Part shown: positions 5,905-50,039 of the stretch, piece by piece
How positions within the stretch are numbered: the first letter of the stretch is position 1
Layout of the letters: every line of letters starts with the position of its first letter
From: a virus
Taxonomy: Duplodnaviria > Caudoviricetes
Length of the DNA stretch: 64,000 nucleotides
Virus record (IMG/VR): IMGVR_UViG_2663763243_000008
Coordinates: 1 to 64,000 of that record
Reading direction: 5' to 3' (one strand)
Notes under the pieces: model-generated
What the model was told of the DNA's origin: nothing
What the model saw: the letters and a program-made list of their open reading frames with translations, nothing else
The model's database searches: none
Made by a program: the position numbers and the translations under genes

Positions 5905-7080
5905 TTAGCTATTAACGGCGGCGGCGAAATTAGCCAGATAACGATCCGTAATCCGCTGACGCAGGGTTAAATCCTCCAGCGGCGGCACCGGGGTGTAGTC
6001 GTAATCAATAAACAGGTGGCCCGCTTTGAGGGTGTCTTTATCGTTGACGCTATCGTCGTACCAGCAATCGCCATCAATCAGATAACCCAATGATTTCAGC
6101 TCGCGCATTTTGGCGCGAATGCCCTCAATAATGTCTTTTGCCAGTGACGGGGTAAGCGGCTTATCGTTGGCCCACATATGGGCCTCGGCCATGGTGTCAG
6201 CCAATACCTGCGCGGTGCGGGTGTAGTTCTCAAAGGCAAATAGCGGATCATCAGAGCAAGAACGGGAACCCCAAAAACGGTAACCGTCCTTGCGGATCAG
6301 GGTGGTAACGTCTTTGCTGTTAAGCAAGTTGGCATCGGTGGCGCTGTTTTGCAGATCCCAAAATACATCCGCACTGATACCGGTAACGCCATTGACGCCC
6401 ACGTTAGACAGTGTTTTATGCCAGCCAACATCATTATCAATCTTGGCGCGCAGGCCGAGGGCGCGGGCGGTCGCAAAGGCGGTAGCCTCGGCATTAGTGA
6501 CCGTATCCCAGCTAAGAAAGTCCGGCCAAATCACCATAGCCTCTCGCTGGCTGAAATTATCGCGGTAGATAATGGCCTCTTCTTTGGTTTTACAACCATA
6601 GGCGCTGATGTAGGCAAAGGCTCGTAGGCTCTGAGCTATGGCAAGTAGTTCAGTAGCAACCGCTTTGGTGTCATGACCGGGCACCCCCAAGATGCGTGGT
6701 TTAACATCAAACTTACCCTGCGCCGCTAACAGCGCTTTCATGCCGGTATAGCGGCCATCTGGCGTGGAGCCGCCGATAATATTGGAGGTGGTTTCGGCTT
6801 CGGTTTCACCCTGAGCCACTCGGACAACAATAGTCACGGGCTTGGTTTGGTCGCTGATAGCATCCAGTGAATGGGCCAATGTGCCGGTTTCACCGGCCTT
6901 GCCGCTGGCGGCCAGCACATCGGTGAGCAATACCGGGGTATTGAGTGGAAACAGGGTGGCGTCAGCATCATCGGAGGTACAGACCATCCCGACCACCGCC
7001 GTACTGACAGTGCGGATCGGGCGAGTGCCTTCGCTAATTTCAATGACGCGCACACCGTGGTGGTAATCGGTTGCAGACAT
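5905..7080 (-). CDS. gpFI: Tail sheath protein FI
   Basis: [11 protein letters not shown]...GWHKTLSNV...[11 protein letters not shown] signature. Confidence 0.96.
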
Positions 7081-36984: not shown

Positions 36985-37038
36985 TTTAAAATCCCTCGGC
37001 TTATGGCTGTGCGGGTTCAAGTCCCGCCCCGGGCACCA
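36985..37038 (+). repeat. att core: 3' half of tRNA-Leu(TAA), leuZ-like, from the anticodon loop to CCA
   Basis: TTTAAAATCCCTCGGCTTATGGCTGTGCGGGTTCAAGTCCCGCCCCGGGCACCA; 5' half absent; lies between two convergent integrases. Confidence 0.92.
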
Positions 37039-37083
37039 TGGAAACAAATCTAAGTAAAACAAAGTAGTATGAGTATGTCGTTA

Positions 37084-37105
37084 ACCGCCGAGAGGCGGTT
37101 TTTTT
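37084..37105 (+). terminator. Intrinsic terminator after the tRNA fragment
   Basis: ACCGCCGAGAGGCGGT followed by T-run. Confidence 0.85.
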
Positions 37106-37120
37106 GTGCCTGAAATCTCA

Positions 37121-37154
37121 TTCCTAAGATGTTCCTAACATCATTTCCTAACAT
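37121..37154. repeat. Three TTCCTAA(G/C)AT direct repeats, probable integrase arm-type sites
   Basis: Copies at 37121, 37132 and 37145 between att and the int stop. Confidence 0.6.
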
Positions 37155-37178
37155 GATTTCGGTTATCTGAATAAAAAT

Positions 37179-38195
37179 TCACTTTTTCTGACCGCCTACC
37201 ACTGGCACAATTTCTGTTTTCCTATCATATCTTGCTGTTTGGGCTGTATTCTTGTGCCCTGAAATGGCTTGCTTCTCTGCGAGGGTTCCCTCTAAGTCTG
37301 ATATTCCCTTGGCTTTTAAATCATGAAACGTGAAATCAAAGTCCAATTCGGAAAATGTTTTTGCGGCCAATAATTTTGCGTTGCGCCACCGACTATTGAA
37401 ACCATCTCTTGTGTAGCCATGCCCAGACCGCTGATGTAGTACATAAATACTGCTCACACCTGGAGCGATTTCTATTCCATCTGCAATTTTGATGGCCTGC
37501 TGTAATCTTTCCGTCCATGCCTTGATCTGTTTCTTTCCTGTTTTCCCTTGCTGTATAAATACCCCGGCATCTATTAGCTGTGACTTTTTTAAGGCGAGGA
37601 TGTCTGCTTGCCGAGCGCAACAAAGATAGGCGAGTTCCATTGCCGCTTTTACAATCGGCGGAGCTACGTTGTAGAGAGCGCTATATTCAGCGTCAGTAAT
37701 GTATCGTTCCCTGCTAACCTCTTTAAATTGCTTAACATCCTTGCATGGGTTGCCTTTTACCATTCCCCTCTCATATCCCCAACGATAAACCCGCGATAGG
37801 AAAGTTTTCTCACGGTTTGCCTGTGTTCTACTGGCAACCCCGCGTCTATCCATATATTTCCTGATATGTTCAGGTTTTATGTTGTCTGGTTCCATTTTCC
37901 CGAAAACTGGTAATACTCTAAGTGAATATTTGCGGTAGTCTTTCTGCGTCTCAACAGCTAACTCATTAAAATCAACAGAGCGGAAAAACTGTTCAATGAG
38001 TTTATTCAAGTTGGCTTTTTCTAATGGCTCAGTATTTATTTTTTCGTAGCATGACCATACTTGAGAAATAGGTGCATCCAATGGGCATAGCGATATTGAG
38101 CCACCGCGGGCGGGGTGGAATTCATATTTCGATTTTCCACGATACACCCGAGGTGGTAATGCCGTGTCTGCGGCGTTCTTGCGTTTACCGGCCAC
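37179..38195 (-). CDS. int: Tyrosine integrase
   Basis: LCCARQAD, QGKTG, FHDLKAKG, GHK...TARY. Confidence 0.94.
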   Translation of the reverse strand: MAGKRKNAADTALPPRVYRGKSKYEFHPARGGSISLCPLDAPISQVWSCYEKINTEPLEKANLNKLIEQFFRSVDFNELAVETQKDYRKYSLRVLPVFGKMEPDNIKPEHIRKYMDRRGVASRTQANREKTFLSRVYRWGYERGMVKGNPCKDVKQFKEVSRERYITDAEYSALYNVAPPIVKAAMELAYLCCARQADILALKKSQLIDAGVFIQQGKTGKKQIKAWTERLQQAIKIADGIEIAPGVSSIYVLHQRSGHGYTRDGFNSRWRNAKLLAAKTFSELDFDFTFHDLKAKGISDLEGTLAEKQAISGHKNTAQTARYDRKTEIVPVVGGQKK

Positions 38196-38421
38196 TGTTC
38201 ATGGCCTCGAAATTGGGTTCTTCTTTTTCTGGCTCTAGCGGCTTACCGCGTAAACTGATTGGATTCAAAAAATGGCCCCAAGTGGTTTTCGGGTGTCCGT
38301 CTGGGCGTCGGATAAAAAAGATCCCCGAGCGGCGTAAAGAGTCACATTGTTTGGTTTTGTAGTGATGACCGGTCAACTCAATCATCTCCTCTTTGGTGAT
38401 TATGTCGTGGTCGTTTTTCAT
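38185..38421 (-). CDS. Excisionase (DUF4224-like)
   Basis: EEMIELTG...KQC..L...GI.F..RPDG.P...EPNF; overlaps int start. Confidence 0.85.
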   Translation of the reverse strand: MKNDHDIITKEEMIELTGHHYKTKQCDSLRRSGIFFIRRPDGHPKTTWGHFLNPISLRGKPLEPEKEEPNFEAMNSGR

Positions 38422-38584
38422 GGTCTTGCCCCTGTATCATTTGGGTTATTGCTCTGTCGGTCGCAGAACAGGCCCGCTGTATATCGTGGTCGGTGAGTTG
38501 TTGTTTCCGTACACTGGCTGATAATTTGCCGATCTTAATATCTAAGTCGGTTAATAGGCGTTTGCCCGGTTGCCATGGCTGCAT
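38378..38584 (-). CDS. Hypothetical protein
   Basis: 68-aa ORF overlapping xis; start codon lies in a GCATGGTGG..CCACCATGC inverted repeat. Confidence 0.55.
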   Translation of the reverse strand: MQPWQPGKRLLTDLDIKIGKLSASVRKQQLTDHDIQRACSATDRAITQMIQGQDHEKRPRHNHQRGDD

Positions 38585-38633
38585 GGTGGTTTCCCTGGTG
38601 TTGGATTTCCACCATGCTAGCGGGGCAGGTTGA

Positions 38634-38816
38634 TTATTTCTGATTATGCAAAATCAATTTTTCGGGTGCTTTCTGCGGTGGGGTGCTGCTAATTCGAACA
38701 TCTACCGGAAAATCGTAGTGAACATCACAACGGCGATCAGTGTGGATGGTGCCTGTTCGTCCATCGGGGAGTGTGATATAGGACTTTTCACCGCGTTTGT
38801 GAGTACGCTTTAGCAT
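38634..38816 (-). CDS. Small protein, weakly CsrA-like
   Basis: ML.RT.K.GE..YI.LPDG...P.DV.I pattern and size. Confidence 0.5.
   Translation of the reverse strand: MLKRTHKRGEKSYITLPDGRTGTIHTDRRCDVHYDFPVDVRISSTPPQKAPEKLILHNQK
38640..38657. promoter_or_regulatory. YdaT/CII-type binding site at a pI-like position
   Basis: CTGATT-ATGCAA-AATCAA matches the TTGATT-N6-AATCAA site described for YdaT; upstream of xis/int. Confidence 0.72.
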
Positions 38817-38861
38817 GGGTGTTGCCTCAGTAATGCCCCGTTGGTTTGGGGCGGGATGAAA

Positions 38862-39362
38862 TTAGCGAACCTGCAGGCTACGGCTACCGATCTCGATATG
38901 CGCACCTTTAACATCAACACCATTCTCTATGGCTTCCTTAATGGCTTTTTTATCGGGCGCTACGGTGGTTTGCACTGTCACCAATTCACTGGACAATAAG
39001 TCTTCATTGTCGATCACCACACTGGCCACACCTTTGCGTGCGGTGAATGTGTTATACGGCGTTTTAAGTGTGTTCATATCTGCGGCCAATAAGCAGTTAA
39101 GGACGTACTGTTTGATCGATTTGGCCCGATTCTCGAATGACCTTTTCCGCTCAGCCAGACGTTTAGCTTCCTCATCACAGGTCTTTGCTTGCCCCTCAAG
39201 ATTGCGAACAAAGACGTAGGTTGCATCCAGCTTATCCCCCAGGGCACCCTCTAACCCCTCAAGCGTATCGGCGATCATTTCTGGCGTGAGTTCCTCTGAG
39301 GACTCAACCAACTGTTGCAGTTTGAAAAGGTCTGCGGCTAATGCGATTGCTGTATTGCTCAT
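38862..39362 (-). CDS. Siphovirus Gp157-family protein
   Basis: DTLEGLEG.L.DK...EAKRL.ERK...PDKKAIKEAI..G.DVKGA...SLQVR. Confidence 0.88.
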   Translation of the reverse strand: MSNTAIALAADLFKLQQLVESSEELTPEMIADTLEGLEGALGDKLDATYVFVRNLEGQAKTCDEEAKRLAERKRSFENRAKSIKQYVLNCLLAADMNTLKTPYNTFTARKGVASVVIDNEDLLSSELVTVQTTVAPDKKAIKEAIENGVDVKGAHIEIGSRSLQVR

Positions 39363-41554
39363 AATGTCGGCTCCTGTGCGGTAAGTTCAGCAACCCGTTT
39401 TTCAGTTAAGCGGTGTAACGCCAGCAGGCGGGTTTTGAGGTAATTGGCGTGTTCGTGATCGGCTTTGGCTTCTGCATCTTTGCGGTGTACATCAACTTCA
39501 CGCGCAATGGTGCTGTAAACCTTGTTCACTTCGTTGGTGGTGACGGCGCTCGTAATGGTATTGCCTACTTTGGTTAACTTCTCATCCAGCTCTTTGCGCA
39601 GACGAACTGAGTCACCGGCTTTCTCACTTGCGTTCTTGATAGCAAACTCAGCGGCGTTATCAGTGCGGTATCCGAGATCATCAAAAAGACCGAGGAATAC
39701 ATCAGCAGAGAAACCAAGTTGTGACAGTGCCTTTTTAGTCGCATCCGTTAGTGATTTTTTGGTGACTTCACTATCACAGGTGAGACCGTTTTTGGTGTTG
39801 TAGATATATGGGGTGCAACCATATGCAGGGATTTCGCCACGCTCACCACGCAGGGTGTAGATTAAGCGTATTTTAATGACATGATTGATCTCAGTTAGAT
39901 AGCCGCCAGATCCGTTGGGTATGACTTCTTTTATATAATTTCCATCAGCACCTTTGACTGACCGCATGATCGGTGCACCGTTATCAAAGCGTTCTTCTAA
40001 AATCTCCACCCGCCAGTTGATACCTTGTGGCCCAAGCAATTTTGTTGCTTGCATAACCATATAGGTGCCGTTAATCGACGTGCCACCACCGTTATTTGAG
40101 AATGCTTTAGTAAAGCGTTCATCGGTTCTTTGCACCGAGCGCCACAGATTCATGTTGTCCTGCACATCTTGTGGCTGTGAAGATATATCCTCTTCAATGA
40201 TGACGGCTCGCTGCTGAAATTCATCAGCAGTAACATCTACAGTAGGAATAGCGCTTTGCTGCGCCTCTTCAATAACCTCTGTCGGCTTCTCCTCAACTGA
40301 GGCATAAACGCTGTAACCCAACTGATCCAACGTCTCTTTAGCCTGTTGAGCTGCGTTATCAGTGATAGGTTCCAGTTCAGGGTTTTCCTGTTCTGTTTCA
40401 ACAATTGGCGGTTTTGTTTCAGTTTCTGGCTCAGAATTGGCAACCAGCGCCAGTTTTGTTTCATTGTTTGCCGCTGGTTGCGGTTCACCACCGGCTAGAC
40501 CATCAATAGAGAACTTGCCATCACCCAGATTGGTTACTGCGGGTTGTGGGTTTTTAACGGCTAAACACTGAGTGATAAATTCCTTTCGTGCTGAGGCATC
40601 GGTCAGGAAGATAGGTTGCTTTTTACCCGCGCGGATCACTTCAAAGATGCTTTCACGTGGAATAGATAACACATTGTTGCGAACGCGAAAATCGGTTGAC
40701 CATTTACGCCAGGCATCATCATTGTTATCCATCAGCTCTTTTGCTTGCTTCATCTCTGCCGACATGACATCCCAGCAGTTAAAATCAGCAGGCAATAAGG
40801 CGAGAGCGACTTCGAGATCGAGCGTTTTATATGTGTGCTCAAAGCTGCGTTTGATTGGCGCATCAGGAGCCGGCGTGTCAATACGGGCAACTTTTTTAGT
40901 ACCGGTTAACTCGTCACGATTGCTGGGTTCATTAACCCATTTTTCAGCAAAGCTACGTACTTCCCTGAATCCAGGTATTTTGGGGAATTTCTTATTTATC
41001 GCATCAATAAGATTTTTAATTGACTGCGGATACATCGCGCCAATTGCAGGAATACATGTGAGCGCCATGTATATCGAACTTATTTCCGGCTCAGCGTCGT
41101 CATCATTAATTAAGTCATACACAAGTGATAGCTCATGTGAATCAATGTCACGCGCACCGTACAACATTACGCTACCAACTTTAGCTCCAATACCCAGTTT
41201 GTTGAAATCAACCGGAGTAGTAGTAATGTCCTCACTTACCTCGCCGTTGTCTTCATTACCATCCTCAGGCAACGGTACAGCATTAGGCGTCCATACTTTG
41301 CCATCAAAGGTATTATCCTGTGCGAACTGCTCATCGAACTCACCAACAACCGGGCGCGGTTGCCCGACAGTATCCTCACAGATTTTCGGATCAGCAAAGT
41401 TATCACCGGCAGCGGGGTAGGCTTCCCATAATTTCCCGATGGCCAGTGCGGATGCCATTTTCTTATTTATGGCTTCCAGAGCTATAACAAGCGGTATAGC
41501 CCCATTTTTGAGAGCCGCTTTTTTCGGCTCGAATAAACAAATAAATACAGTCAT
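39359..41554 (-). CDS. RecE-like N-terminal region fused to a Rad52/Sak-like annealing domain
   Basis: HTYKTLDLEVALALL..W..WS (RecE-like); C-terminal TSINGTY...LGPQGINW...KKSLTDATKKALSQLGFSADVFLG. Confidence 0.7.
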   Translation of the reverse strand: MTVFICLFEPKKAALKNGAIPLVIALEAINKKMASALAIGKLWEAYPAAGDNFADPKICEDTVGQPRPVVGEFDEQFAQDNTFDGKVWTPNAVPLPEDGNEDNGEVSEDITTTPVDFNKLGIGAKVGSVMLYGARDIDSHELSLVYDLINDDDAEPEISSIYMALTCIPAIGAMYPQSIKNLIDAINKKFPKIPGFREVRSFAEKWVNEPSNRDELTGTKKVARIDTPAPDAPIKRSFEHTYKTLDLEVALALLPADFNCWDVMSAEMKQAKELMDNNDDAWRKWSTDFRVRNNVLSIPRESIFEVIRAGKKQPIFLTDASARKEFITQCLAVKNPQPAVTNLGDGKFSIDGLAGGEPQPAANNETKLALVANSEPETETKPPIVETEQENPELEPITDNAAQQAKETLDQLGYSVYASVEEKPTEVIEEAQQSAIPTVDVTADEFQQRAVIIEEDISSQPQDVQDNMNLWRSVQRTDERFTKAFSNNGGGTSINGTYMVMQATKLLGPQGINWRVEILEERFDNGAPIMRSVKGADGNYIKEVIPNGSGGYLTEINHVIKIRLIYTLRGERGEIPAYGCTPYIYNTKNGLTCDSEVTKKSLTDATKKALSQLGFSADVFLGLFDDLGYRTDNAAEFAIKNASEKAGDSVRLRKELDEKLTKVGNTITSAVTTNEVNKVYSTIAREVDVHRKDAEAKADHEHANYLKTRLLALHRLTEKRVAELTAQEPTL

Positions 41555-41609
41555 GTTGGTCTTGCCTCTTTGGTTTTTAAACGGATCTTGGTCTTTGATG
41601 TATGACTAA

Positions 41610-41945
41610 TTAAAAAGGAATTTCGGTATCATCAGATACGTTCGATGGAGTGCTGTGCTCGATGCATAGCAACGCCTGAATCTGATCATCAATTAGTGAC
41701 TGCTTACGATATGACTCAGCCGCAATCTGTTCCTTTTTGCTATGGAGTGAATCGACATGCTTGCTGATGATTTCAAAAGGGTCGGGTTCGTCAAAAGGAA
41801 TCGTAATTTCTCGGGTTTCGAGTAAAACATGCGCTGGCTCAACCTGTGACATGTCACAGGTGTACACGGTAAAGCGATCATCTTTTGATGTTGAATATGG
41901 ATTGGTATGGATGTAGAGCTTGGTGGTTATCTGTAGTGCTGTCAT
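41610..41945 (-). CDS. Hypothetical early protein
   Basis: AGGAG RBS before ATG 41945; ends DDTEIPF, resembling an SSB-type acidic tail. Confidence 0.72.
   Translation of the reverse strand: MTALQITTKLYIHTNPYSTSKDDRFTVYTCDMSQVEPAHVLLETREITIPFDEPDPFEIISKHVDSLHSKKEQIAAESYRKQSLIDDQIQALLCIEHSTPSNVSDDTEIPF
41842..41861. repeat. 20-bp perfect palindrome ACCTGTGACATGTCACAGGT
   Basis: Direct reading; contains the shared 14-mer. Confidence 0.9.
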
Positions 41946-41954
41946 AGCAACTCC

Positions 41955-41963
41955 TGATATACT
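41955..41963 (+). promoter_or_regulatory. Extended -10 promoter element for an antisense RNA
   Basis: TG-A-TATACT. Confidence 0.6.
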
Positions 41964-41968
41964 TATTT

Positions 41969-42088
41969 TAAGATTGATGGCGTAAGCCGTTGGTCTTGCC
42001 TCTGTTAACGGGTTGGTCCCCGTTAGCTTCCCGGTTAACTTTGGTCGGTGACCCGGGGTAAAGAAGCCCACTTCGGTGGGTTTTTTTA
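41969..42088 (+). ncRNA. Predicted antisense small RNA with three UUGGUC motifs
   Basis: Extended -10 upstream, three stem-loops whose G-U pairs work only on the + strand, then intrinsic terminator GCCCAC-TTCG-GTGGGT-T6. Confidence 0.7.
42064..42088 (+). terminator. Intrinsic terminator oriented against the pL operon
   Basis: AAGCCCACTTCGGTGGGTTTTTTT. Confidence 0.8.
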
Positions 42089-42255
42089 CGTCTGTAATTT
42101 GGTGCCCATTACGCCGGGCCAGCGGGTCAGATCTTCGGTCTTGCCTCACCACACTTTCCCGTCGTGGCTACGTTATTGGTTTGGGCTGCTGCACTGTGGT
42201 AATCATGCCGAGCCTTGGCGCGGGGTTCTCCTCCAATGCAACAACCCAAATTCTG

Positions 42256-42411
42256 TTATTGCCGTACTTTGACTACTTGATAATCACGGCCAGTATTACG
42301 TGCGTAATCATCAGCTTCTTTGCGAGTTGGGTAAGTATTTCCGTTAGCCCACATTCCACAGTAGCGATATTGGATCTGGAATTTACTCGCTTGCTTTTTA
42401 GTTGCTTTCAT
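42256..42411 (-). CDS. 51-aa hypothetical, first gene of the pL operon
   Basis: GAGGGA RBS, MKATKKQASKFQIQY... Confidence 0.55.
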   Translation of the reverse strand: MKATKKQASKFQIQYRYCGMWANGNTYPTRKEADDYARNTGRDYQVVKVRQ

Positions 42412-42465
42412 AACTTCCCTCTTTTGCCGTCTTCCCGGCTGCCAGAACGTACTAAACCTAAACTT

Positions 42466-42527
42466 GCGAATCATCCGGTGTTTCGTATGCCACCGGCAGC
42501 TACTTCGTGGGCGTCCTGCCTGTTCGC
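42466..42527 (-). ncRNA. Structured pL leader element
   Basis: GCGAA..TTCGC closing stem with GCAG..CTGC and CCGGTG..CACCGG hairpins just after pL. Confidence 0.45.
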
Positions 42528-42556
42528 ATCGGCTACTGTGCCGTGTTGATGAGAGA

Positions 42557-42609
42557 AATGTACCTATAGTTACCTTTCGTGTCAATAAGGGGGTGTTCCA
42601 ATAGTTACA
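42557..42609 (-). promoter_or_regulatory. pL promoter with two OL operators
   Basis: TTGACA-17-TACATT on minus; operators TGTACCTATAGTTACC (42559) and TGTTCCAATAGTTACA (42594). Confidence 0.8.
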
Positions 42610-42620
42610 TTTAGGGGCAT

Positions 42621-42646
42621 AAAAAAGCCCATCAGGGGGATGGGCT
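42621..42646 (-). terminator. cI terminator
   Basis: AGCCCATC..GATGGGCT followed by T-run on minus. Confidence 0.8.
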
Positions 42647-42651
42647 ATTGA

Positions 42652-43314
42652 TTACAGGTCTTGGGTAACCTGAACAACGCGACCGAGAATACGGCAATTG
42701 CCGTTTATTTCGATGGGTTTGAAATTGGGATTTAAAGGCATTAGGTATTTATTGGGGCCATCAACAACTAACTTTTTAATGGTGGCCTCGGAGCTGCCAT
42801 CAATGATGGCGACCACTATTTTACCGTACAAATCATCAATAGAACCATAATTAGGTTCTACGATAACGGTAGACCCCTCGGGGATAGAAGGGGAACCATT
42901 GGGGTTGGTCATTGACTCACCCCGAACATCCAAACCAAATGCGTTTTCAGAAACCTTCACTGTGGTGTTGCACCATCTAAGAACATCAGAGATACGGGCG
43001 GCGGAGTAGGTTTCTGTCCAGGCACCGGCTTGAACGGATGAGATGACAGGTATGGCATTAGGCACAGCGACGAGGGGCTTAATCTTCGTATCGTCAACCT
43101 GACGTAAATCTCCGGTACCATAGAGTAACCACTCTGGCGTGCATGAAAGTATTTGCGCCAGCCGGTGAAGATTTTCCCCATCTGGTTTAGTGATTCCTGA
43201 CTCCCATTTTGTCACTGATACACGGCTCACCCCAATAGCTTTGGCTAATTGGACTTGCGTGAGATCTAGCTGCAGTCTGCGAAGACGGATGCGGTCATTC
43301 ATTTCATTTTTCAT
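42652..43314 (-). CDS. cI: CI-like repressor (HTH + S24 peptidase)
   Basis: LTQVQLAKAIGVSRVSVTKWE; VRGESM and TIKKL autocleavage residues; start probably 43314. Confidence 0.93.
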   Translation of the reverse strand: MKNEMNDRIRLRRLQLDLTQVQLAKAIGVSRVSVTKWESGITKPDGENLHRLAQILSCTPEWLLYGTGDLRQVDDTKIKPLVAVPNAIPVISSVQAGAWTETYSAARISDVLRWCNTTVKVSENAFGLDVRGESMTNPNGSPSIPEGSTVIVEPNYGSIDDLYGKIVVAIIDGSSEATIKKLVVDGPNKYLMPLNPNFKPIEINGNCRILGRVVQVTQDL

Positions 43315-43379
43315 GTAACCAATGTTACGCCATAGCGATGTGAAAAGTGTTTGCATTGTTATGTACCTTTTGTTACCTT
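43314..43379 (+). promoter_or_regulatory. pR promoter with OR operators
   Basis: TTGCAT-17-TACCTT; operators TGTAACCAATGTTACG (43314) and TGTACCTTTTGTTACC (43362) match OL. Confidence 0.78.
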
Positions 43380-43406
43380 TCATCCTGAGTTAAACAAGGA
43401 GTTCCT

Positions 43407-43592
43407 ATGAACAAGAAAGATGTCGTCAAGTTTTTTGGTGGGGTAGTGAATACCGCCACGGCCTTAGGCATAAAGCACCCAGCAGTTTGCCGTTGGGGGG
43501 CAATTATCCCTGAGAAACAGGCAATGAAGATTGAACGCATGACTCATGGCGAACTGAAATATGACCCCGCTATGTATCGAAGTGCAGCCTAA
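43407..43592 (+). CDS. cro: Cro-like repressor
   Basis: KDVVKFFGG...A.ALGI...AV..WG..IP...A..IE..T.GELK. Confidence 0.88.
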   Translation: MNKKDVVKFFGGVVNTATALGIKHPAVCRWGAIIPEKQAMKIERMTHGELKYDPAMYRSAA

Positions 43593-43611
43593 CCCAATCC
43601 CACTCACAAAT

Positions 43612-43629
43612 CTGATTATCAATAATCAA
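43612..43629. promoter_or_regulatory. YdaT/CII-type binding site at a pRE-like position
   Basis: CTGATT-ATCAAT-AATCAA between cro and the cII-position gene. Confidence 0.75.
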
Positions 43630-43652
43630 TTTCCTGCGACAGGAGACGCAAC

Positions 43653-44117
43653 GTGGAACAAGAAATTAAAGCCCTTAAAGCCGAAGTTCAGGCGTGGGCG
43701 GCAGAGCGGGGGCAGGAGCATGTAGCTATCGAGATCAGCAGAATGTTTTTCTTGCTCAATATCAACACCGGTTCAGTTCGTCTCACTCCCATTGAAAACG
43801 GGCAGGGCGGCGCTGATTGGAAGTCTATTAACAACAACCGGCAGCAGTTATTTCGCTGGCTGCGCGGGGATTCAAAAGCATCAATGCGCAAGGTCTTGGA
43901 ATTATCACCGGTACTTAAAGCGGCACTCCCGGCAGAACGGCGGGCCAGGGTGAATGGCGAGACCGTGAATTATTTGGTTTCGATTGCCAGTCGAGAGTTT
44001 GCCGCAGCAATTAGCGCGGTTCTATTAGATGGCTGTGACATGTCACAAAGGATATCGGGCGCTGTTGCGGCACTTCACGCAATCAGACCACAACACCACC
44101 GGCTGACCACCGTATAA
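43653..44117 (+). CDS. YdaT-family CII-equivalent activator
   Basis: WAAERGQEHVAIEI...NNRQQLFRWL...L.P....ALP.ERRAR; cII position; GTG start with AGGAG. Confidence 0.8.
   Translation: MEQEIKALKAEVQAWAAERGQEHVAIEISRMFFLLNINTGSVRLTPIENGQGGADWKSINNNRQQLFRWLRGDSKASMRKVLELSPVLKAALPAERRARVNGETVNYLVSIASREFAAAISAVLLDGCDMSQRISGAVAALHAIRPQHHRLTTV
44034..44047. repeat. TGTGACATGTCACA palindrome
   Basis: Exact copy inside the YdaT-like gene. Confidence 0.9.
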
Positions 44118-44133
44118 AACAGAGGCAAGACCA

Positions 44134-44358
44134 ATGCTTACATCTATCGACAAAATCACCTGGCGCAACGGATTCCGGCTTAACGGCCAACCGGCAAGCA
44201 TGGTTGACATCGCCCCTATTTTTGCCGGGCGTCAGGTAGCCGCCTATAGCGTGTGGGAGCAGTATGAACAAAAGAAAGCCGACCTGCGCGGGATGAACCT
44301 ATCGCCTGACGATTATCAGTCTGCCTGTCGGCAAATAGCCGAAGCGCTAGGGATCTGA
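44134..44358 (+). CDS. Hypothetical protein
   Basis: RBS AGAGGCAAGACCA; between cII and replication genes. Confidence 0.75.
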   Translation: MLTSIDKITWRNGFRLNGQPASMVDIAPIFAGRQVAAYSVWEQYEQKKADLRGMNLSPDDYQSACRQIAEALGI

Positions 44359-44360
44359 CT

Positions 44361-45335
44361 ATGAGCATGAATCTAATGGCTCGGGCCATGAATATCAAAG
44401 TCGGCAACCCGTTACGAAAGTTAGTGCTGATAAAATTAGCTGATAATGCGAACGATCAGGGCGAGTGCTGGCCATCGGTTCCCTACATTGCCGATCAGTG
44501 TGAAATATCCGAACGCTCGGTACAGAATCATATTCAAGAACTGGTCAAAAGTGGGCTGGTTAGGATTGAAGAACGTAAATCTGATAATGGCCTGAATCGT
44601 TCAAATGTTTATCACCTGCGCTTAAATTCCGCTGGTGCAAATGCTGCACCCTATGGTGAATCTCCTGCACCCTCTGGTGTAAATGGTGCACCGGTTAGTG
44701 GTGCAAATGCTGCACCCAGAACCAGTCACTCTTTTGAACCAGTCATAGATCCAAATACACCCCTTACCCCTCAAGGGGAAACCGAAAATATTCTCGCTGA
44801 CGCTGAAAAGGCTTTGGCGTATTACAACGAACTCACTCACACTCGGTGTGAAGATTCTAGCCCATTCGAAACCTTGCTGACGGCAACGAAATCACGCAAA
44901 GCCTACGCGCTGGCTGATTTGCAACTGGTGGCCCTATGGGTAGTCAGCACATGGAAACCCCGCAACGGCAAGTATGCCAAACCTGCGAATATCTGCCGTG
45001 TAAACCGGTTCGATGGTTATCTGGCTGATGCCCGCGCATGGTCTGAGTCTGCCGGGCGGATTGATTGCGATGAGGTCATTGCTGCGTATAACCGTGTATT
45101 CAGCGATGTTTTGCCACCGGCTGAAATCGATCAGGACCGTAAACACGCCATCCGCGAATTACTCCAATACCTCAAAACCAAAGACCTTGAAGCGTTCCAG
45201 AGCTACTTCGAAGCCTTTCGCGGACAGGCAACCGTGTTTTATTTCGGTGGTGATGATGGGGCAGGCTGGCGGGCAAACTTTGATTATCTGATGAAACCGG
45301 AAGTTTTAAGAAAAACCCGTGATGGTGCGCTATGA
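44361..45335 (+). CDS. Replication initiator (O-like, N-terminal HTH)
   Basis: KLVLIKLADNAND.GECWPS...IA..CE; internal iterons; C-terminal WRANFDYL. Confidence 0.88.
   Translation: MSMNLMARAMNIKVGNPLRKLVLIKLADNANDQGECWPSVPYIADQCEISERSVQNHIQELVKSGLVRIEERKSDNGLNRSNVYHLRLNSAGANAAPYGESPAPSGVNGAPVSGANAAPRTSHSFEPVIDPNTPLTPQGETENILADAEKALAYYNELTHTRCEDSSPFETLLTATKSRKAYALADLQLVALWVVSTWKPRNGKYAKPANICRVNRFDGYLADARAWSESAGRIDCDEVIAAYNRVFSDVLPPAEIDQDRKHAIRELLQYLKTKDLEAFQSYFEAFRGQATVFYFGGDDGAGWRANFDYLMKPEVLRKTRDGAL
44634..44716. repeat. Four iterons of the phage replication origin
   Basis: GGTG.A.....TGCACC at 44634, 44655, 44676 and 44700. Confidence 0.8.
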
Positions 45336-46693
45336 ATGCATACGATTTAGAGTCAGCGGTAGTGGGTGGCCTGCTGCTCGGTGGCGCTACACCAGATGCC
45401 TATGACGTTATTGCCACTTTGCCTGAGGACGCCTTTAATACGGCATTCTTCCGCCGCGTGTATATCGAGATTAAGCGTCAGGCGCTGGGGACGTCAGTCA
45501 TTGATCCGATCTTAGTCGGCGAGTCGATGGGGGGTGATGATTTTGCCAACGTCTTAAGCACAGCAAAAAGCTGTTGGAGCGCTGCAAATCTCAAGGGCTA
45601 TGCAGACCTGGTTCGCGAATATTGGCATGTACGTGCGTTGACGGCAGCAATCCAAAAAGGGCAGCAGCAATTGGCCGCCTCTCACAGTCATGAACAGGCC
45701 AAGTTTGCTGTAGCTGAATTCATGGTCACCATGACCGAATTAACAAGCGAAAGTGGCGGCTTAATGCCGGTACACATCAAGGAATTGATGGATACCTATG
45801 TCGACACGCTGGAAAAACGGAACTTAGGCGCAGAAGAAACCCGCATGATCATGACCGGCATTGAACCGCTGGATCAGTTGACCGGAGGCTTTAACCCCAC
45901 CGATTTAATTATACTGGCCGGACGCCCCGGCATGGGTAAAACAGAGTTGGCGTTAAGCATGATTAACGGCATGACCCGTAATGGTGGTGGCGCTTTGTTG
46001 TTCTCTATGGAGATGGCAGCACAGCAGATTACCGAACGTACCATTGCCGGATCTGCCCAACTACCCGTATCCAAATTGCGTTCTGGCGTACTTTATGAGG
46101 AGGATTGGGCGCGCATATCTAACAGCCTTGGCGAGTTGGTTAATCAGGATATTTGGATTGTTGATGCCAGCGAACTCACCATTGATCAGATACGCGCCAT
46201 TTCTGAAACGCATAAACGCCGTTACCCGCACTTGAGTGGCGTATTTGTTGATTACATGGGGCTAATTACCACACCAAAAGCTGAGCGGCATGATCTGGCC
46301 GTTGGCAAAATATCCGGTGGCCTCAAAGCCCTTGCAAAACGCATCCATACGCCTGTTATCGCCTTAAGCCAACTATCTAGAAAGGTGGACGAAAGGCCCG
46401 CGGGTATGCGTCGTCCCGTTCCCGCCGATCTGCGTGACTCTGGTTCTGTTGAACAAGACGCTGACCGAATAATTTTCACCTACCGCGATGTTATTTATAA
46501 CCCACTCAGTCCAGCCAAGGACTACGCCGAATTGATTTTAGCTAAAGATAGATTTGGCATTCCGGGTGTCGTGTACCAGCAATTTAAAAATGGGCATTAC
46601 ATGCCAACTAACCAAACTAGTGCAGAGCAAGTATGCCGTATGCAGCAGGAAGCAAAATCAAACAATAGAAGTTACTCAACAAAAAAATTTTAA
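45332..46693 (+). CDS. dnaB: Replicative DNA helicase (DnaB-like)
   Basis: AGRPGMGKT, FSMEM, VDY, LSQLSR, DLRDSGSVEQDAD. Confidence 0.95.
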   Translation: MNAYDLESAVVGGLLLGGATPDAYDVIATLPEDAFNTAFFRRVYIEIKRQALGTSVIDPILVGESMGGDDFANVLSTAKSCWSAANLKGYADLVREYWHVRALTAAIQKGQQQLAASHSHEQAKFAVAEFMVTMTELTSESGGLMPVHIKELMDTYVDTLEKRNLGAEETRMIMTGIEPLDQLTGGFNPTDLIILAGRPGMGKTELALSMINGMTRNGGGALLFSMEMAAQQITERTIAGSAQLPVSKLRSGVLYEEDWARISNSLGELVNQDIWIVDASELTIDQIRAISETHKRRYPHLSGVFVDYMGLITTPKAERHDLAVGKISGGLKALAKRIHTPVIALSQLSRKVDERPAGMRRPVPADLRDSGSVEQDADRIIFTYRDVIYNPLSPAKDYAELILAKDRFGIPGVVYQQFKNGHYMPTNQTSAEQVCRMQQEAKSNNRSYSTKKF

Positions 46694-46737
46694 CCGCGCC
46701 TGACCAGCGTTTAAGTAACCCCAAAAGAGGCAAGACC

Positions 46738-47118
46738 ATGAAAAAACGTGAACTAACTACCCGTGAATTGGCTGAGGTTATGCTGGGCCAAAGCATGAGC
46801 TACAGCCAGATTATCGAGGCTATAGCTTTAAAATTCCCTAATGCTGAAATGCCTATTAACGTACTGCGTATCCGTGTGAGAAGCATGGTGCTCTCACCTC
46901 ATGCAGACATTACCCGCCGCAATGGTCGAAAGACTCAATACACCCTCAACAGTATCTCAGAGGATTTTTTCCGATTCTCTGACACACAAGTCAAACGCAA
47001 TAAAAGCGAACCCCGAACTAAACCCGCCAGAATGCCATTTGATGATAAGGAGTTGGCGTACTGCTTGCGAGCATCCCGAATAAATCAACTGATGAGCACT
47101 GTAGGCATGGGGAGTTAA
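46738..47118 (+). CDS. Hypothetical, possibly winged-HTH protein
   Basis: RBS AGAGGCAAGACC; basic 126-aa ORF. Confidence 0.72.
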   Translation: MKKRELTTRELAEVMLGQSMSYSQIIEAIALKFPNAEMPINVLRIRVRSMVLSPHADITRRNGRKTQYTLNSISEDFFRFSDTQVKRNKSEPRTKPARMPFDDKELAYCLRASRINQLMSTVGMGS

Positions 47119-47122
47119 TACC

Positions 47123-47374
47123 ATGTCCGGGCAATCTGATTATCTCCCGCCCGGACTCCCGTACAACATTTGCCTCTGGCCTCAGGAATACCAAGAAAAG
47201 CTAAATCTTGATTTGAGAGCCAGCGGCTTAATCAAAAACCTGTACGAGCGCAGGACCAACCGCGCTCATGTACTTGAAGCGATTGAACGGGTACCGGTGC
47301 ATTACCGAGAGTTTTTTAAAGAGCGCTTAAATTACTGGCGTGACCGTAGAGACCACAGAGGCGAGACCAAATGA
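47123..47374 (+). CDS. DNA polymerase III theta-like (HolE/Hot) protein
   Basis: EKLNLDL.ASG...P.HYREFFKERL resembles HolE DKVNVDLAAAG...PEHLRSWFRERL. Confidence 0.65.
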   Translation: MSGQSDYLPPGLPYNICLWPQEYQEKLNLDLRASGLIKNLYERRTNRAHVLEAIERVPVHYREFFKERLNYWRDRRDHRGETK

Positions 47375-47877
47375 ATATTTCAACCGATGGCATGATTGCT
47401 GCAATTCGTTCAGCAGCGGAAAGAGTGGAACCACGTGAAAGTGAGGTGCTAAACGGCATCGCTGATCGCATAGCGGAGCTGGTGACCTCAGCTAATAAGA
47501 ACCGGCGCACAGCGAAGCATTATGAGCGGGAGTGTTTGGAGTGGCAGGGGAAATATAATGTGATTGTTGCCGAGAACGCAGCACTTCAACAATCCTGCGT
47601 CCATGTATATAACGCTGGTTACAACAGGGGGCATCTGAATACGGTAGATGGCATCTCTTCATGTGGCGACTATGAAGAAGATGCATTTGAGGCGCTATAC
47701 GAAGTAATTAGTGTCCCTGCAACCATTCTGGCTCTTAATGATGTAGAGGCGAGTGGTGTTGAAAAATTTGCGCAGCACCGTCACGTACAAGCCTTTGACG
47801 TTGGTGTAATGGCAGATACAGGCGAGATTTCCAATATTCTTGATTTCGCAGCAAGACTACGTGAGGGGGCGCAATGA
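47371..47877 (+). CDS. Hypothetical (Ead/Ea22-like accessory) protein
   Basis: AENAAL..., A.GVEKFA and FAARLREG mosaic motifs; RBS GAGGCGAGACC. Confidence 0.6.
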   Translation: MNISTDGMIAAIRSAAERVEPRESEVLNGIADRIAELVTSANKNRRTAKHYERECLEWQGKYNVIVAENAALQQSCVHVYNAGYNRGHLNTVDGISSCGDYEEDAFEALYEVISVPATILALNDVEASGVEKFAQHRHVQAFDVGVMADTGEISNILDFAARLREGAQ

Positions 47878-50039
47878 TCTGGCCTACTGAAGTTCAGCAA
47901 TGTGCCTCATCAGTCATTCCTGTTCACCCAATGAGTGAGCCAGAGCAACAGCAGCTACTGGCCAATATGAACCAAATGTTTTTGACGCGAGAAGACCCGC
48001 GCAACATTCAAAAGGCGGCTCATGCATGGGCGCGGCGCAAAGAAATCACAGTTGCACGACCTGATTTGCAGGATGGTCTGGTTGTCGTTGGGTTCGCTGG
48101 TGGCGGTGGGAGCTGCGAGGGAATCAAGCAAGCATTAGGCTATGAACCACACATCGCGATGAACCATAATCCGGTAGCCATGGCGATGCATGCCATTAAT
48201 CACCCGCGCACGCTGCATTACCCTGAGGATATTTTCAGTGTTGATCCGCTCATCTCAACGGGCGGTTTACCGGTATTACTGGGTTGGTTTAGTCCTGATT
48301 GCCGCCATTTCTCTAAGGCCAAGGGCGGAACGCCAGTCAAGAAAGAGATTCGTGGTCTGGCATGGGTCGTATTGCGCTGGGCGCTGGCAGTACGCCCACG
48401 TTTTCTGATGCTGGAGAACGTCGAAGAATTTCGCGGCTGGGGGCCACTTTTGACGGATAGTGAAGGCAATCACCGACCTGATCCAGCCCGTAAAGGCGAA
48501 ACGTTCAAAGCGTTTATTGGCATGCTAGGTACTGGGATTGATGCTAATCACCCCGCACTGGTCGAAGTGTGTGAATTCTTGAAGATAGATATCAATGGCC
48601 CTGAAGCAGCAAGGTTGGTTTCAGGGCTGGGTTATAACGTTGATCACCGGGAACTGAAAGCCTGTGATTACGGCACACCCACTATTAGAAAACGGTTGTT
48701 TGTGGTTGGGCGTTGTGACGGTGAGCCAGTTGTCTGGCCGGAGCCAAGCCACGGCGCACCCAACTCTACTGATGTGCTTTCTGGCATGCTGCAACCTTGG
48801 CGAACGGCGGCCGAATGTATCGACTGGAGCCAGCCAACACGTTCTATTTTCGGTCGCAAAAAGGATTTGGCTGATAACACCTTGCGGCGCATCGTCAAAG
48901 GATTACAGCGGTTTGTTATTGATAACCCCGATCCGTTTATTGTGCGACTGGGACAAACTGGTTTTGGTGGTGACCGTCTGCAATACCCAATAGACCAGCC
49001 ACTAACCACAATTACCAGTAAGGCCGAGCATTTGTTGCTGGAGCCGTATGCGGTGAAGTGCAATCACACCAGCACCAAAACCAAATATGATTGTTTCCGT
49101 GGGCAGTCATTGCGCGATCCGTTACAGACCATAACCAGAACGCATGGTTTTGCTATTGCTGCGCCGGTAGTTGTACGTCAGTTCGGTAACAGTACGGCAA
49201 ATGATATCAATACGCCGCTGGGTACCGTTACAGCGGGTGGGGGCGGTAAAAGCCAGTTAGCCAGTGCGGTATTGGTGGGGGCCGGTGGCCCAACATACTC
49301 AGGAAAACCACGAGATATCAATTCACCAATCAACACCATTGCTACTCAGTCACATACAGCAATCGCCACTGCTAACCTTGTTAAGCATTACGGTGGAAAT
49401 TACACCGGTGCAGGCATCGATATTAACGAGCCATTGCATACTATCACTACGGTCGATCACCATGCGCTTTGTACATCTCACCTGGTACAACTGCGTGGTA
49501 CATGTCGCGATGGTAAACCCATCACCGAACCGGTACCGACTTTAACCGCGGGCGGTAATCATGTCGGACTGGTAAACGCATTTCTGACCAAGTATTACGG
49601 CACTGGCGGCGAGGTGGATTTATCAGAGCCGATACATGCTGTGACAACCAAAGAACGTTTTGGCTTGGTGGAAAGCAATCTTGATGCCGAACCACTGACC
49701 GACGAGCAACGCTACAACGCATGGAACTGCGCGCGGCTGGTGGATCATTTCAGCGATTTGCCGGACGACTGGCATTTATTCCCTGCACCACGGCCACAAT
49801 TTCTATCGGTAGGCGAATACATCATCGTTGATATTTGTATGCGCATGCTGATTGCGCGTGAACTGTACAACGCTAGTGGGTTCCCGCCAGACTACATTAT
49901 TGACCGAGATATTGACGGCACAATCTGGCCTAAATCTGAGCAGGTGGCAAGGTGTGGTAATGCGGTACCGCCACCTTTTGCCGAGGCATTGGTAAGGGCG
50001 AATATGCCAGAGTTGTGTATTTGGAGGATGGCGGCATGA
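47874..50039 (+). CDS. DNA cytosine-C5 methyltransferase
   Basis: FAGGGG, SPDCRHFS, ENVEEF, R.RLF, GNAVPP; long variable region with P..TIT repeats. Confidence 0.92.
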   Translation: MIWPTEVQQCASSVIPVHPMSEPEQQQLLANMNQMFLTREDPRNIQKAAHAWARRKEITVARPDLQDGLVVVGFAGGGGSCEGIKQALGYEPHIAMNHNPVAMAMHAINHPRTLHYPEDIFSVDPLISTGGLPVLLGWFSPDCRHFSKAKGGTPVKKEIRGLAWVVLRWALAVRPRFLMLENVEEFRGWGPLLTDSEGNHRPDPARKGETFKAFIGMLGTGIDANHPALVEVCEFLKIDINGPEAARLVSGLGYNVDHRELKACDYGTPTIRKRLFVVGRCDGEPVVWPEPSHGAPNSTDVLSGMLQPWRTAAECIDWSQPTRSIFGRKKDLADNTLRRIVKGLQRFVIDNPDPFIVRLGQTGFGGDRLQYPIDQPLTTITSKAEHLLLEPYAVKCNHTSTKTKYDCFRGQSLRDPLQTITRTHGFAIAAPVVVRQFGNSTANDINTPLGTVTAGGGGKSQLASAVLVGAGGPTYSGKPRDINSPINTIATQSHTAIATANLVKHYGGNYTGAGIDINEPLHTITTVDHHALCTSHLVQLRGTCRDGKPITEPVPTLTAGGNHVGLVNAFLTKYYGTGGEVDLSEPIHAVTTKERFGLVESNLDAEPLTDEQRYNAWNCARLVDHFSDLPDDWHLFPAPRPQFLSVGEYIIVDICMRMLIARELYNASGFPPDYIIDRDIDGTIWPKSEQVARCGNAVPPPFAEALVRANMPELCIWRMAA

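Follow-up and report, generated by a model that had tools for sequence, protein, structure and literature searches.

Why should a prophage set the same short sequence over the ribosome-binding sites of genes scattered through both of its divergent early operons? The question is raised by IMG/VR virus record IMGVR_UViG_2663763243_000008 (Duplodnaviria; Caudoviricetes), of which positions 1 to 64,000 were analyzed and are referred to here as the window. In and around the immunity region of a lambda-like prophage within this window, the 11-mer GAGGCAAGACC, here termed the label, occurs five times exactly, against 0.01 copies expected from 100 dinucleotide-preserving shuffles. Opposite the leader of the pL operon lies a predicted gene for an IsrB-like small RNA, whose pairing stretch is a perfect complement of the label. 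We regard it as reasonably likely that this RNA acts on many targets by pairing over their ribosome-binding sites and represses the labeled early genes.

A rescan of the window bore out the five exact copies and three variants counted by an earlier sequence-only reading, with a single shift in position (38818, not 38817; Table 1). A fourth one-mismatch match, at 60141, lies within a late gene, is not followed by a start codon, and is probably a chance occurrence; at two mismatches, the 17 matches in the window are at chance level (13.2 expected). As that reading had stated, every one of the eight copies is oriented with the operon in which it lies, on the minus strand left of cI and on the plus strand right of cro, and six of them are followed by an ATG within 0–3 nt. 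Within the label, GAGG is the Shine–Dalgarno (SD) sequence and CAAGACC(A) occupies the spacer, the fuller form being AA-GAGGCAAGACC-A-AUG-AU. Two copies precede no start codon. The one at 42137 had been recognized as such, and a reading of the frames agrees; the one at 41992 had been taken for an ordinary copy and is actually the opposite strand of the small RNA's pairing stretch. The P2-like prophage, from which the label had been reported absent, contains no copy at up to one mismatch over positions 1–36000. This label-free prophage (window 1–34000) directly adjoins the lambda-like prophage in the one provirus record.

Table 1. Positions of the labels, the predicted small-RNA gene and its parts, the promoters and the accessory hairpins in the window
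Feature	Position	Strand	Context and basis
Exact label	41558..41568	-	3 nt before the ATG of a 731-aa RecE-like exonuclease gene (39359-41554, phrog_2489); string scan
Exact label without start codon	41992..42002	-	pL-leader strand facing the small RNA's pairing stretch; string scan
Exact orphan label	42137..42147	-	pL leader, no open reading frame after it; string scan
Exact label	44122..44132	+	1 nt before the ATG of a 74-aa gene (44134-44358, phrog_2465); string scan
Exact label	46727..46737	+	Directly before the ATG of a 126-aa gene (46738-47118), after a DnaB-like helicase gene; string scan
Variant label GGGGCAAGACC	38422..38432	-	One mismatch; directly before the ATG of the excisionase gene xis (38185-38421, phrog_1266)
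Variant label GAGGCAACACC	38818..38828	-	One mismatch; 1 nt before the ATG of a 60-aa gene (38634-38816, phrog_2482)
Variant label GAGGCGAGACC	47358..47368	+	One mismatch; 2 nt before the ATG of a 168-aa gene (47371-47877)
Predicted IsrB-like small RNA, ~118 nt	41969..42087	+	Rfam match, fold, alignment
Small-RNA 5' hairpin	41969-41998	+	
Pairing stretch UUGGUCUUGCCUC	41990-42002	+	DNA reads TTGGTCTTGCCTC
Hairpin 2	42004-42027	+	UUGGUC loop
Hairpin 1	42029-42058	+	CUUUGGUCGG loop
Terminator	42060-42087	+	GC-rich stem and U7
Predicted small-RNA promoter	41934..41963	+	Weak -35 (TAGTGC/GTGCTG); -10 TATACT (41958-41963)
pL-like promoter	42557..42585	-	TTGACA-17-TACATT; starts the leader with both orphan labels
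Accessory hairpin GCCCC-AAACCAAC-GGGGC	38835..38852	-	Upstream of the 38818 label
Accessory hairpin CGG-CUGACCA-CCG	44100..44112	+	Ends 9 nt before the 44122 label
Accessory hairpin GCGC-CUGACCA-GCGU	46696..46710	+	Ends 16 nt before the 46727 label

Is there a gene for such an RNA? An E-value scan of Rfam, in which the gathering score is 35 bits, matched isrB (RF01386) to positions 42000–42086 on the plus strand, covering model positions 1–87 of 87 with E between 7e-5 and 2e-4 and a score, 35.0 bits, equal to the gathering score; a tRNA scan and a default Rfam scan of the window returned nothing. The whole small RNA folds at -56 kcal/mol (z-score -5.1) and presents UUGGUC in two hairpin loops. 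Its predicted promoter overlaps the SD and ATG of the opposite-strand phrog_2479 gene, and on the pL strand the terminator stem is followed only by CUUCUUUACC. In an alignment of 35 unique family sequences (A1), TTGGTCTTGCCTC is invariant, and the stems of hairpin 2 covary, five pairs showing changes on both sides in 3–15 of the 35 sequences. Strands were compared through single-sequence folds; RNAalifold, given the MAFFT alignment, puts hairpin 1 out of register and suggests a long-range pairing. Mean folding energies are -53.1 kcal/mol for the small-RNA strand and -37.5 for the pL strand, and the small-RNA strand is the lower in 35 of 35 cases, a count that overstates independence because the sequences are related; with the terminator left out, it is more stable in 34 of 35. 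G-U pairs number 2–10 on the small-RNA strand versus 0–3 on the pL strand; because each such pair is an A-C mismatch in the opposite strand's fold, it is the antisense RNA on which selection has acted. A TAnnnT -10 hexamer lies 22–32 nt upstream of the label's complement (the anti-label) in all 38 unique sequences, in five variants (TAAAAT, TATATT, TATACT, TATAAT, and TATAGT), and the -35 is weak, mostly TTGTGC. The 5' hairpin has been rebuilt from different sequences in each lineage, its 3' arm always being part of the anti-label. In one relative (L025, record G008, positions 5985–6028), two anti-label copies stand 22 nt apart beside a normal small-RNA gene.

The position of the gene matches that of a described RNA. 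Northern blots and primer extension detected IsrB-1 and IsrB-2 of the Salmonella Gifsy prophages as RNAs of 88 and 94 nt; the two are induced by starvation and are antisense to their flanking genes, which Table 1 of that paper gives as sbcA/STM1010 (PMC2330248). IsrB expression is also described in lysogens (PMC7067206), and IsrB is listed as ProQ-associated (PMC5391140); passages of these three papers give no target or function for it. In E. coli, the name "IsrB" refers to a different RNA, IS092/AzuCR, which is unrelated (PMC12612679). Gifsy-2 isrB scores 99 bits and lies antisense between STM1010 and STM1009 (exoVIII), that is, in the pL operon just upstream of a RecE-like exonuclease; the window RNA occupies the same place, between pL and the 731-aa exonuclease gene with the phrog_2479 gene. 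The two also share the 3' half, namely the CUUUGGUCGG-loop hairpin and the terminator. They differ at the 5' end, which reads UGCCUUAACAGCACC in Gifsy IsrB, whereas the window RNA has an anti-ribosome-binding-site stretch matched by 5–8 gene starts. A search of Gifsy-2 for repeated targets of its IsrB gave none of at least 10 nt and three scattered 9-mers. Given this other 5' end and lack of repeated targets, the multi-target design belongs to the present family and not to all IsrB. One cultured member of the family is Pectobacterium phage ZF40 (NC_019522), which has the same early gene order, leader, small-RNA gene, and five exact labels, with one variant label, GAGGCAAGATC, at the exonuclease. 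Its small RNA differs in reading GGUCUUGCCUU, a C-to-U change that keeps the pairing, and its hairpin 2 lacks UUGGUC. In a term search, the ZF40 genome paper (PMC3391216) did not contain Shine-Dalgarno, ribosome binding, RBS, motif, or small RNA.

How far do label and RNA travel together? Megablast of positions 38000–48000 matched only short pieces in annotated phages. Scanning IMG/VR for the label plus ATG gave ~20 records with 2–5 copies amid many single chance matches, and a scan for the leader arrangement, with one genome per species, gave 37 stretches, ~30 of them in Enterobacterales; those outside this order look like chance matches or misassigned contigs. Label-bearing genera include Yersinia, Rouxiella, Serratia, Symbiopectobacterium, Providencia, Proteus, Morganella, Xenorhabdus, and Photorhabdus, and Yersinia frederiksenii ATCC 33641 has almost the same leader sequence as the window. 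The label is not equally frequent at host gene starts: in five host genomes, 35 of 38 exact copies fell in prophage early regions of 10–13 kb with strand switches at the immunity region. The three strays are at chance level, because a reversed control pattern gave eight matches in the same genomes. Since the copies in host genomes cluster in prophages, the label is a phage signal and not a host start signal. At multi-copy loci, 151 unique contexts had an ATG within 0–6 nt in 135 cases (103 of them AATG); one had only a TTG 3 nt downstream, and 15 had no start codon. The no-start copies listed are leader copies, except one in L051, a probable chance record.

Linkage was seen from either direction, in sequence sets that overlap and hold many close relatives. 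Starting from the label, the RNA gene was found in 19 of 20 multi-copy viral records, the exception being a metagenome record, half complete, whose two copies are oddly placed. Starting from hairpin 1, an exact anti-label was present in all but one of 71 further loci, that one being a chance match; 68 of the 70 contained further labels, the two without them being loci of 3.1 and 1.1 kb. The same scan, used to look for variant pairing stretches, turned up none among the 70 true loci (71 scanned). Nor is orientation random. The further labels number 224, of which 109 lie on the pL side in the pL sense, 89 on the pR side in the pR sense, and 26 between pL and the terminator, as at 42137, with none the wrong way round; an ATG follows within 0–3 nt in 196.

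Does conservation follow the predicted duplex? Upstream of the label, A is found in 89% of cases at -1 and 65% at -2; downstream, A precedes the ATG in 92%, followed after the ATG by A (61%) and T (62%), with background beyond. Conservation of the flanks stops where complementarity to the RNA consensus ATCATTGGTCTTGCCTCTT stops, the label consensus being the reverse complement of that sequence, and the label is kept opposite the RNA even where no ATG follows. Among 18 unique one-change variants at the starts of open reading frames, 14 are A-to-G or C-to-T changes that keep G-U pairing and none is G-to-A, a bias that is only suggestive because it reflects ~7 events versus 3 and because the SD accounts for three of the four G positions. 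In the window, the A-to-G changes of GGGGCAAGACC and GAGGCGAGACC likewise retain a G-U pair with the small RNA. Cofolding, net of unfolding, gave -15.8 to -30.1 kcal/mol for five of the six labeled starts, with the 44122 label as the strongest predicted target (-30.1) and values of -17.5, -17.0, and -16.8 kcal/mol for the 41558, 46727, and 47358 labels; 15 unlabeled starts not overlapping the RNA gene gave 0 to -7.3 kcal/mol. The start of phrog_2479, which lies opposite the RNA's promoter and 5' end, reached -20.7 kcal/mol.

The sequence-only reading had also proposed an RNA-level signal in which GACC(A) sites upstream of several labels pair with UUGGUC loops. Its RNA-level part is strengthened by the perfect complement in a conserved antisense small-RNA gene, and the upstream sites are present; it is GACCA that is enriched across the family, while plain GACC shows no enrichment in the labeled region. 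Of 104 labeled starts, 48 have GACCA in the 80 nt upstream, against 52 of 310 control starts; it is commonest 15–25 nt ahead of the label, frequently within a 7-nt loop such as CACGC-CAGACCA-GCGUG; its complement, TGGTC, occurs upstream of 0 of 104 and 11 of 310, respectively. In the window, the sites at 44105 and 46702 lie in small hairpin loops, and those at 41588 and 47351 are unstructured. Relatives' homologues of the 44100..44112 hairpin read CACGC-C(A/C)GACCA-GCGUG, their loop at the hairpin corresponding to 38835..38852 reads GGACCAAC, and the hairpin of 46696..46710 also precedes ZF40 gp16. Judging by their sequences, the GACCA loops could pair with the UUGGUC loops of the small RNA.

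These features can be assembled into a mechanism. In a Rac/Gifsy/ZF40-like family of prophages, the label would serve as a shared address laid over the SD, spacer, and start codon of 5–8 early genes in both divergent operons. A single IsrB-class RNA gene, antisense to the pL leader, would be expressed from a promoter overlapping the start of the first pL gene and end at the U7 terminator, and its invariant stretch, 5'-(CA)UUGGUCUUGCCUC(UU), is an exact complement of the label. In vivo, the RNA would pair over the ribosome-binding site of each labeled mRNA for 13–19 bp, with a free toehold (CCUCU in the window; UUGCCUCUU in most relatives) beginning the pairing and extension proceeding into the 5' hairpin. 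Ribosome entry would be blocked, and the duplex might be cut by RNase III or RNase E. At some labels, the UUGGUC loops may make a first "kissing" contact with the GACCA loops 15–25 nt upstream. The RNA is fully complementary to the pL leader as well, and the 42137 label may offer a second landing site on the nascent leader just ahead of its terminator. In sum, genes for excision and recombination and those of the replication region would stay off in a lysogen or shortly after infection.

Several observations weigh against this mechanism. The small RNA of this prophage family is a prediction from sequence, and its isrB score is no higher than the threshold, the default gathering scan of the whole window having left the match unlisted. 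Across all relatives recovered, the pairing stretch never changes, so that no compensatory change between seed and target, the kind of evidence that would weigh most, is seen. Pairing beyond the label averages 5.0 nt within a phage versus 4.5 nt between lineages, a marginal difference, and lineage-specific covariation of RNA and target flanks was dropped as support. Most of the window's anti-label is held in the 5' hairpin stem, with ~5 bases free, and RNAalifold offers an internal pairing of UUGCCUC with GGGGUAA. Gifsy-2 IsrB, with its different 5' end and no repeated targets, has mapped 5' ends that would lie inside the window's anti-label. Counts of label variants are not independent and the SD G positions are constrained anyway; the overlap of the sequence sets and the many close relatives in them weigh in the same direction. 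Predicted binding is also weak at two labels, that of the 60-aa gene starting at 38816, where the change in GAGGCAACACC loses one pair (-7.4 kcal/mol), and the 42137 orphan (-5.2 kcal/mol).

Could the label be read by something other than this RNA? A phage or host RNA-binding protein, acting as a RegA- or CsrA-like translational repressor or activator, might grip the GACCA of a hairpin loop together with the GACCA between SD and AUG, the three to four sites of the pL leader serving to titrate or load it. We hold this to be unlikely. GACCA does recur in hairpin loops and label 15–25 nt apart, resembling the loop-plus-SD logic of CsrA sites; moreover, the entire 11-mer is invariant, beyond the needs of a 7-nt RNA seed, and the anti-label is partly buried in a stem. 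Yet no candidate protein emerged, as the labeled and neighboring small genes match no RNA-binding family and the window's 51-aa first pL gene is absent from relatives, and a protein would leave unexplained the exact complement inside a conserved promoter-to-terminator unit, the better fold of the small-RNA strand in 35 of 35 sequences, and the G-U-compatible variants. Equally doubtful is a plain translation-start cassette or module-boundary linker of the Susskind–Botstein kind, homogenized by mosaic recombination, with the overlap with the RNA incidental or acting only as antisense in cis. The properly spaced GAGG, the intergenic gap before labeled genes, and 27 site pairs with one flank at least 75% identical and the other at background (22 downstream only, 5 upstream only) speak for this reading; these junctions are, however, a small minority beside the 348 site pairs that are alike on both sides, and 15 nt is short for homologous exchange. 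Leader copies without an open reading frame have been kept. Other early genes that are well expressed (cI, cro, the ydaT-like gene, O, and phrog_2479) use ordinary, differing SDs. CAAGACC has no complement of at least 7 nt in a host 16S rRNA, so translation efficiency gives no reason for its invariance across at least 10 genera.

This last point bears on a further idea, that the bases after GAGG form a super-SD whose pairing extends along the 16S rRNA tail or to another region. The duplex with the 16S tail is indeed slightly stronger than that of a U-spacer control (-11.2 vs -8.6 kcal/mol), but the 16S rRNA of a Providencia host has no complement of at least 7 nt to any part of GAGGCAAGACCAATG (0.6 expected), just two 6-mers match, both at internal 16S positions, and the label is absent from host gene starts; extended 16S pairing was rejected on this comparison, and we find it scarcely credible. 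Reading on DNA, for example by a phage DNA-binding, replication, or methylation protein, would fit a label confined to ~10 kb around the immunity region of a phage that encodes a 721-aa DNA methyltransferase. It is nevertheless highly improbable in view of the strict co-orientation (0 of 224 wrong) and the fixed 0–3 nt to the ATG, which are properties of an mRNA signal, and of the asymmetric, nonpalindromic form of the label. Repression by a multi-target small RNA remains the explanation that we prefer.

What, then, are the copies that precede no gene? In a three-frame reading of the minus strand over 41540–42660, both orphan labels fall in a ~310-nt leader bounded by a 51-aa open reading frame (42256–42411) and the true phrog_2479 start (ATG at 41945, with its own AGGAG), and an intrinsic terminator hairpin at 42067–42080 separates the two. 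Just upstream of the 41992 copy on this strand are two hairpins with GACCAA loops; the 42137 copy, for which the sequence-only reading suggested a possible role as a decoy or a termination/processing switch, lies upstream of a hairpin (42104–42119) and the leader terminator, and its counterpart is present in 26 of 70 relatives. In most relatives, the leader label is followed by a mini-open reading frame (MINH and a stop), the ATG of which has been lost in the window and in L108, L130, L139, L141, and L163. Such mini-frames, of 4–7 codons (MINH, MISIIDR, or MTNH before the stop), occur in most lineages, for example L017, L043, L075, L093, and L161, and are lost in the window's lineage and a Symbiopectobacterium/Serratia lineage; the stretch encoding them also specifies the antisense RNA's 5' hairpin. 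The 51-aa frame, on the minus strand with its own SD, sits inside the pL leader beside a duplicated hairpin unit and matches no family. Neither the closest relative, L108, nor other leaders contain it, which gives it the look of an inserted moron; as an N-like or RNA-binding factor it was rejected on the same absence and the lack of a family match.

A lambda-type nut site, in which a boxA precedes a boxB hairpin bound by an arginine-rich N protein, was considered for the orphan 42137 label. The boxA consensus is CGCTCTTTA, and the orphan label is unlike it. Relatives carry a hairpin, GCYCG-GAAAGA-CGRGC, after the orphan label, preceded by TGAC (leaders of L116, L043, and L100), and the window has two boxB-resembling hairpins on the minus strand, GCCG-GGAAGA-CGGC (42426–42439) and GCCC-GGCGUAAU-GGGC (42104–42119). 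The L116 leader contains three boxB-like units in tandem. Neither the gene families of the window nor the relatives include an N-like gene after the leader; in relatives, genes after the helicase have arginine/lysine-rich N termini, e.g., MAKTAAERKAEQRKR. A separate 62-nt piece of the leader (42465–42527, minus strand) is 85–95% identical to intergenic DNA of many otherwise unrelated phages, among them ST64B, 118970_sal3, SfII, YeP1-3, mEp460, phiNP, and Stx2c-converting phages. Its ST64B counterpart closely follows the cI-like gene sb38, and the contig of a close relative joins 42464 to 42528, lacking exactly this piece. The piece does not stand out in its folding (z-score 0.1) and may be a portable part of leaders, for example an antiterminator of the put or nut kind.

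Two further observations concern the surroundings. The "CII-like" gene at 43653–44117 (plus strand), after which comes the 74-aa labeled gene, matches Pfam YdaT_toxin (E 2e-26), so that the immunity region is of the Rac type, racR-ydaS-ydaT. RNA reads from three runs with the same species label covered only positions 37000–37113 of the 37000–50000 interval; as they are confined to this host flank, the sequenced strain lacks the prophage. The reads there reach a depth of 200–330 on one strand, with many molecules starting at 37073–37090. This segment is host DNA at the integrase end of the prophage, probably the attachment-site gene, and ARAGORN found no tRNA in it.

Has a comparable arrangement been described? 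Small phage RNAs that confer immunity by antisense pairing include P1/P7 c4, P22 sar, P4 CI, and N15 CA. Like the window RNA as proposed here, they pair with a ribosome-binding site or leader through loops and short boxes and turn lytic functions off; they differ in acting on one operon at one or two sites, whereas the label RNA would address 5–8 starts in both operons. The Rfam C4 model had no match at its gathering threshold over the 64 kb, nor at E up to 10 over 41850–42650. T4 RegA and CsrA also place one factor over many ribosome-binding sites, with accessory sites in hairpin loops, but they are proteins with a loose consensus, in contrast to invariant sites with an RNA complement. The nearest described pattern is that of the start-associated sequences (SAS) of Cluster K mycobacteriophages. 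As set out in passages of PMC3203893, SAS are asymmetric 13-bp repeats with an SD core, 3–7 bp before mostly ATG starts of nonstructural genes; they keep one orientation, are absent from the host, are kept across subclusters before unrelated genes, carry an upstream inverted repeat at about half of the sites (extended SAS), and were proposed as binding sites for a host- or phage-encoded RNA or protein. The label shares this pattern, including upstream repeats in a subset, but the analogy is one of pattern only: the SAS consensus is GGGATAGGAGCCC, from which the window label differs, and the host phylum and phage type differ too. A complementary small-RNA gene is identified only for the label, whose upstream hairpins show stem covariation. 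Among the matches listed, literature carrying the 11-mer was on eukaryotic or viral cell biology and none was on phage, and searches of the prophage, IsrB, and antisense-RNA literature, host genera included, found no description of the label or of IsrB targets.

What would the arrangement mean for these phages? Family-wide, it is possible, and we advance it tentatively, that the label and its RNA form a "zip code" by which one IsrB-class RNA silences 5–8 early genes through an invariant label of 13–19 nt, with cross-immunity independent of the repressor. Under this proposal, the label would be frozen amid diverged surroundings because one RNA and many sites must stay matched; and since heteroimmune relatives from at least 10 genera share the same RNA and labels, the RNA of a resident prophage would silence the early genes of superinfecting relatives. 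Repression of the labeled genes by this RNA, if borne out, would be the first concrete function and target set for the IsrB class, known since 2008 as expressed and ProQ-associated, and a design undescribed for lambda-like phages, in which a uniform address label at ribosome-binding sites is read by a single antisense RNA. The idea is directly testable in ZF40, the cultured member of the family. It also suggests what to seek in other phages with "start-associated" repeats, and the same logic may explain those of the Cluster K mycobacteriophages. For the prophages themselves, the design would add an RNA layer to the lysis–lysogeny switch and may add cross-immunity between relatives.

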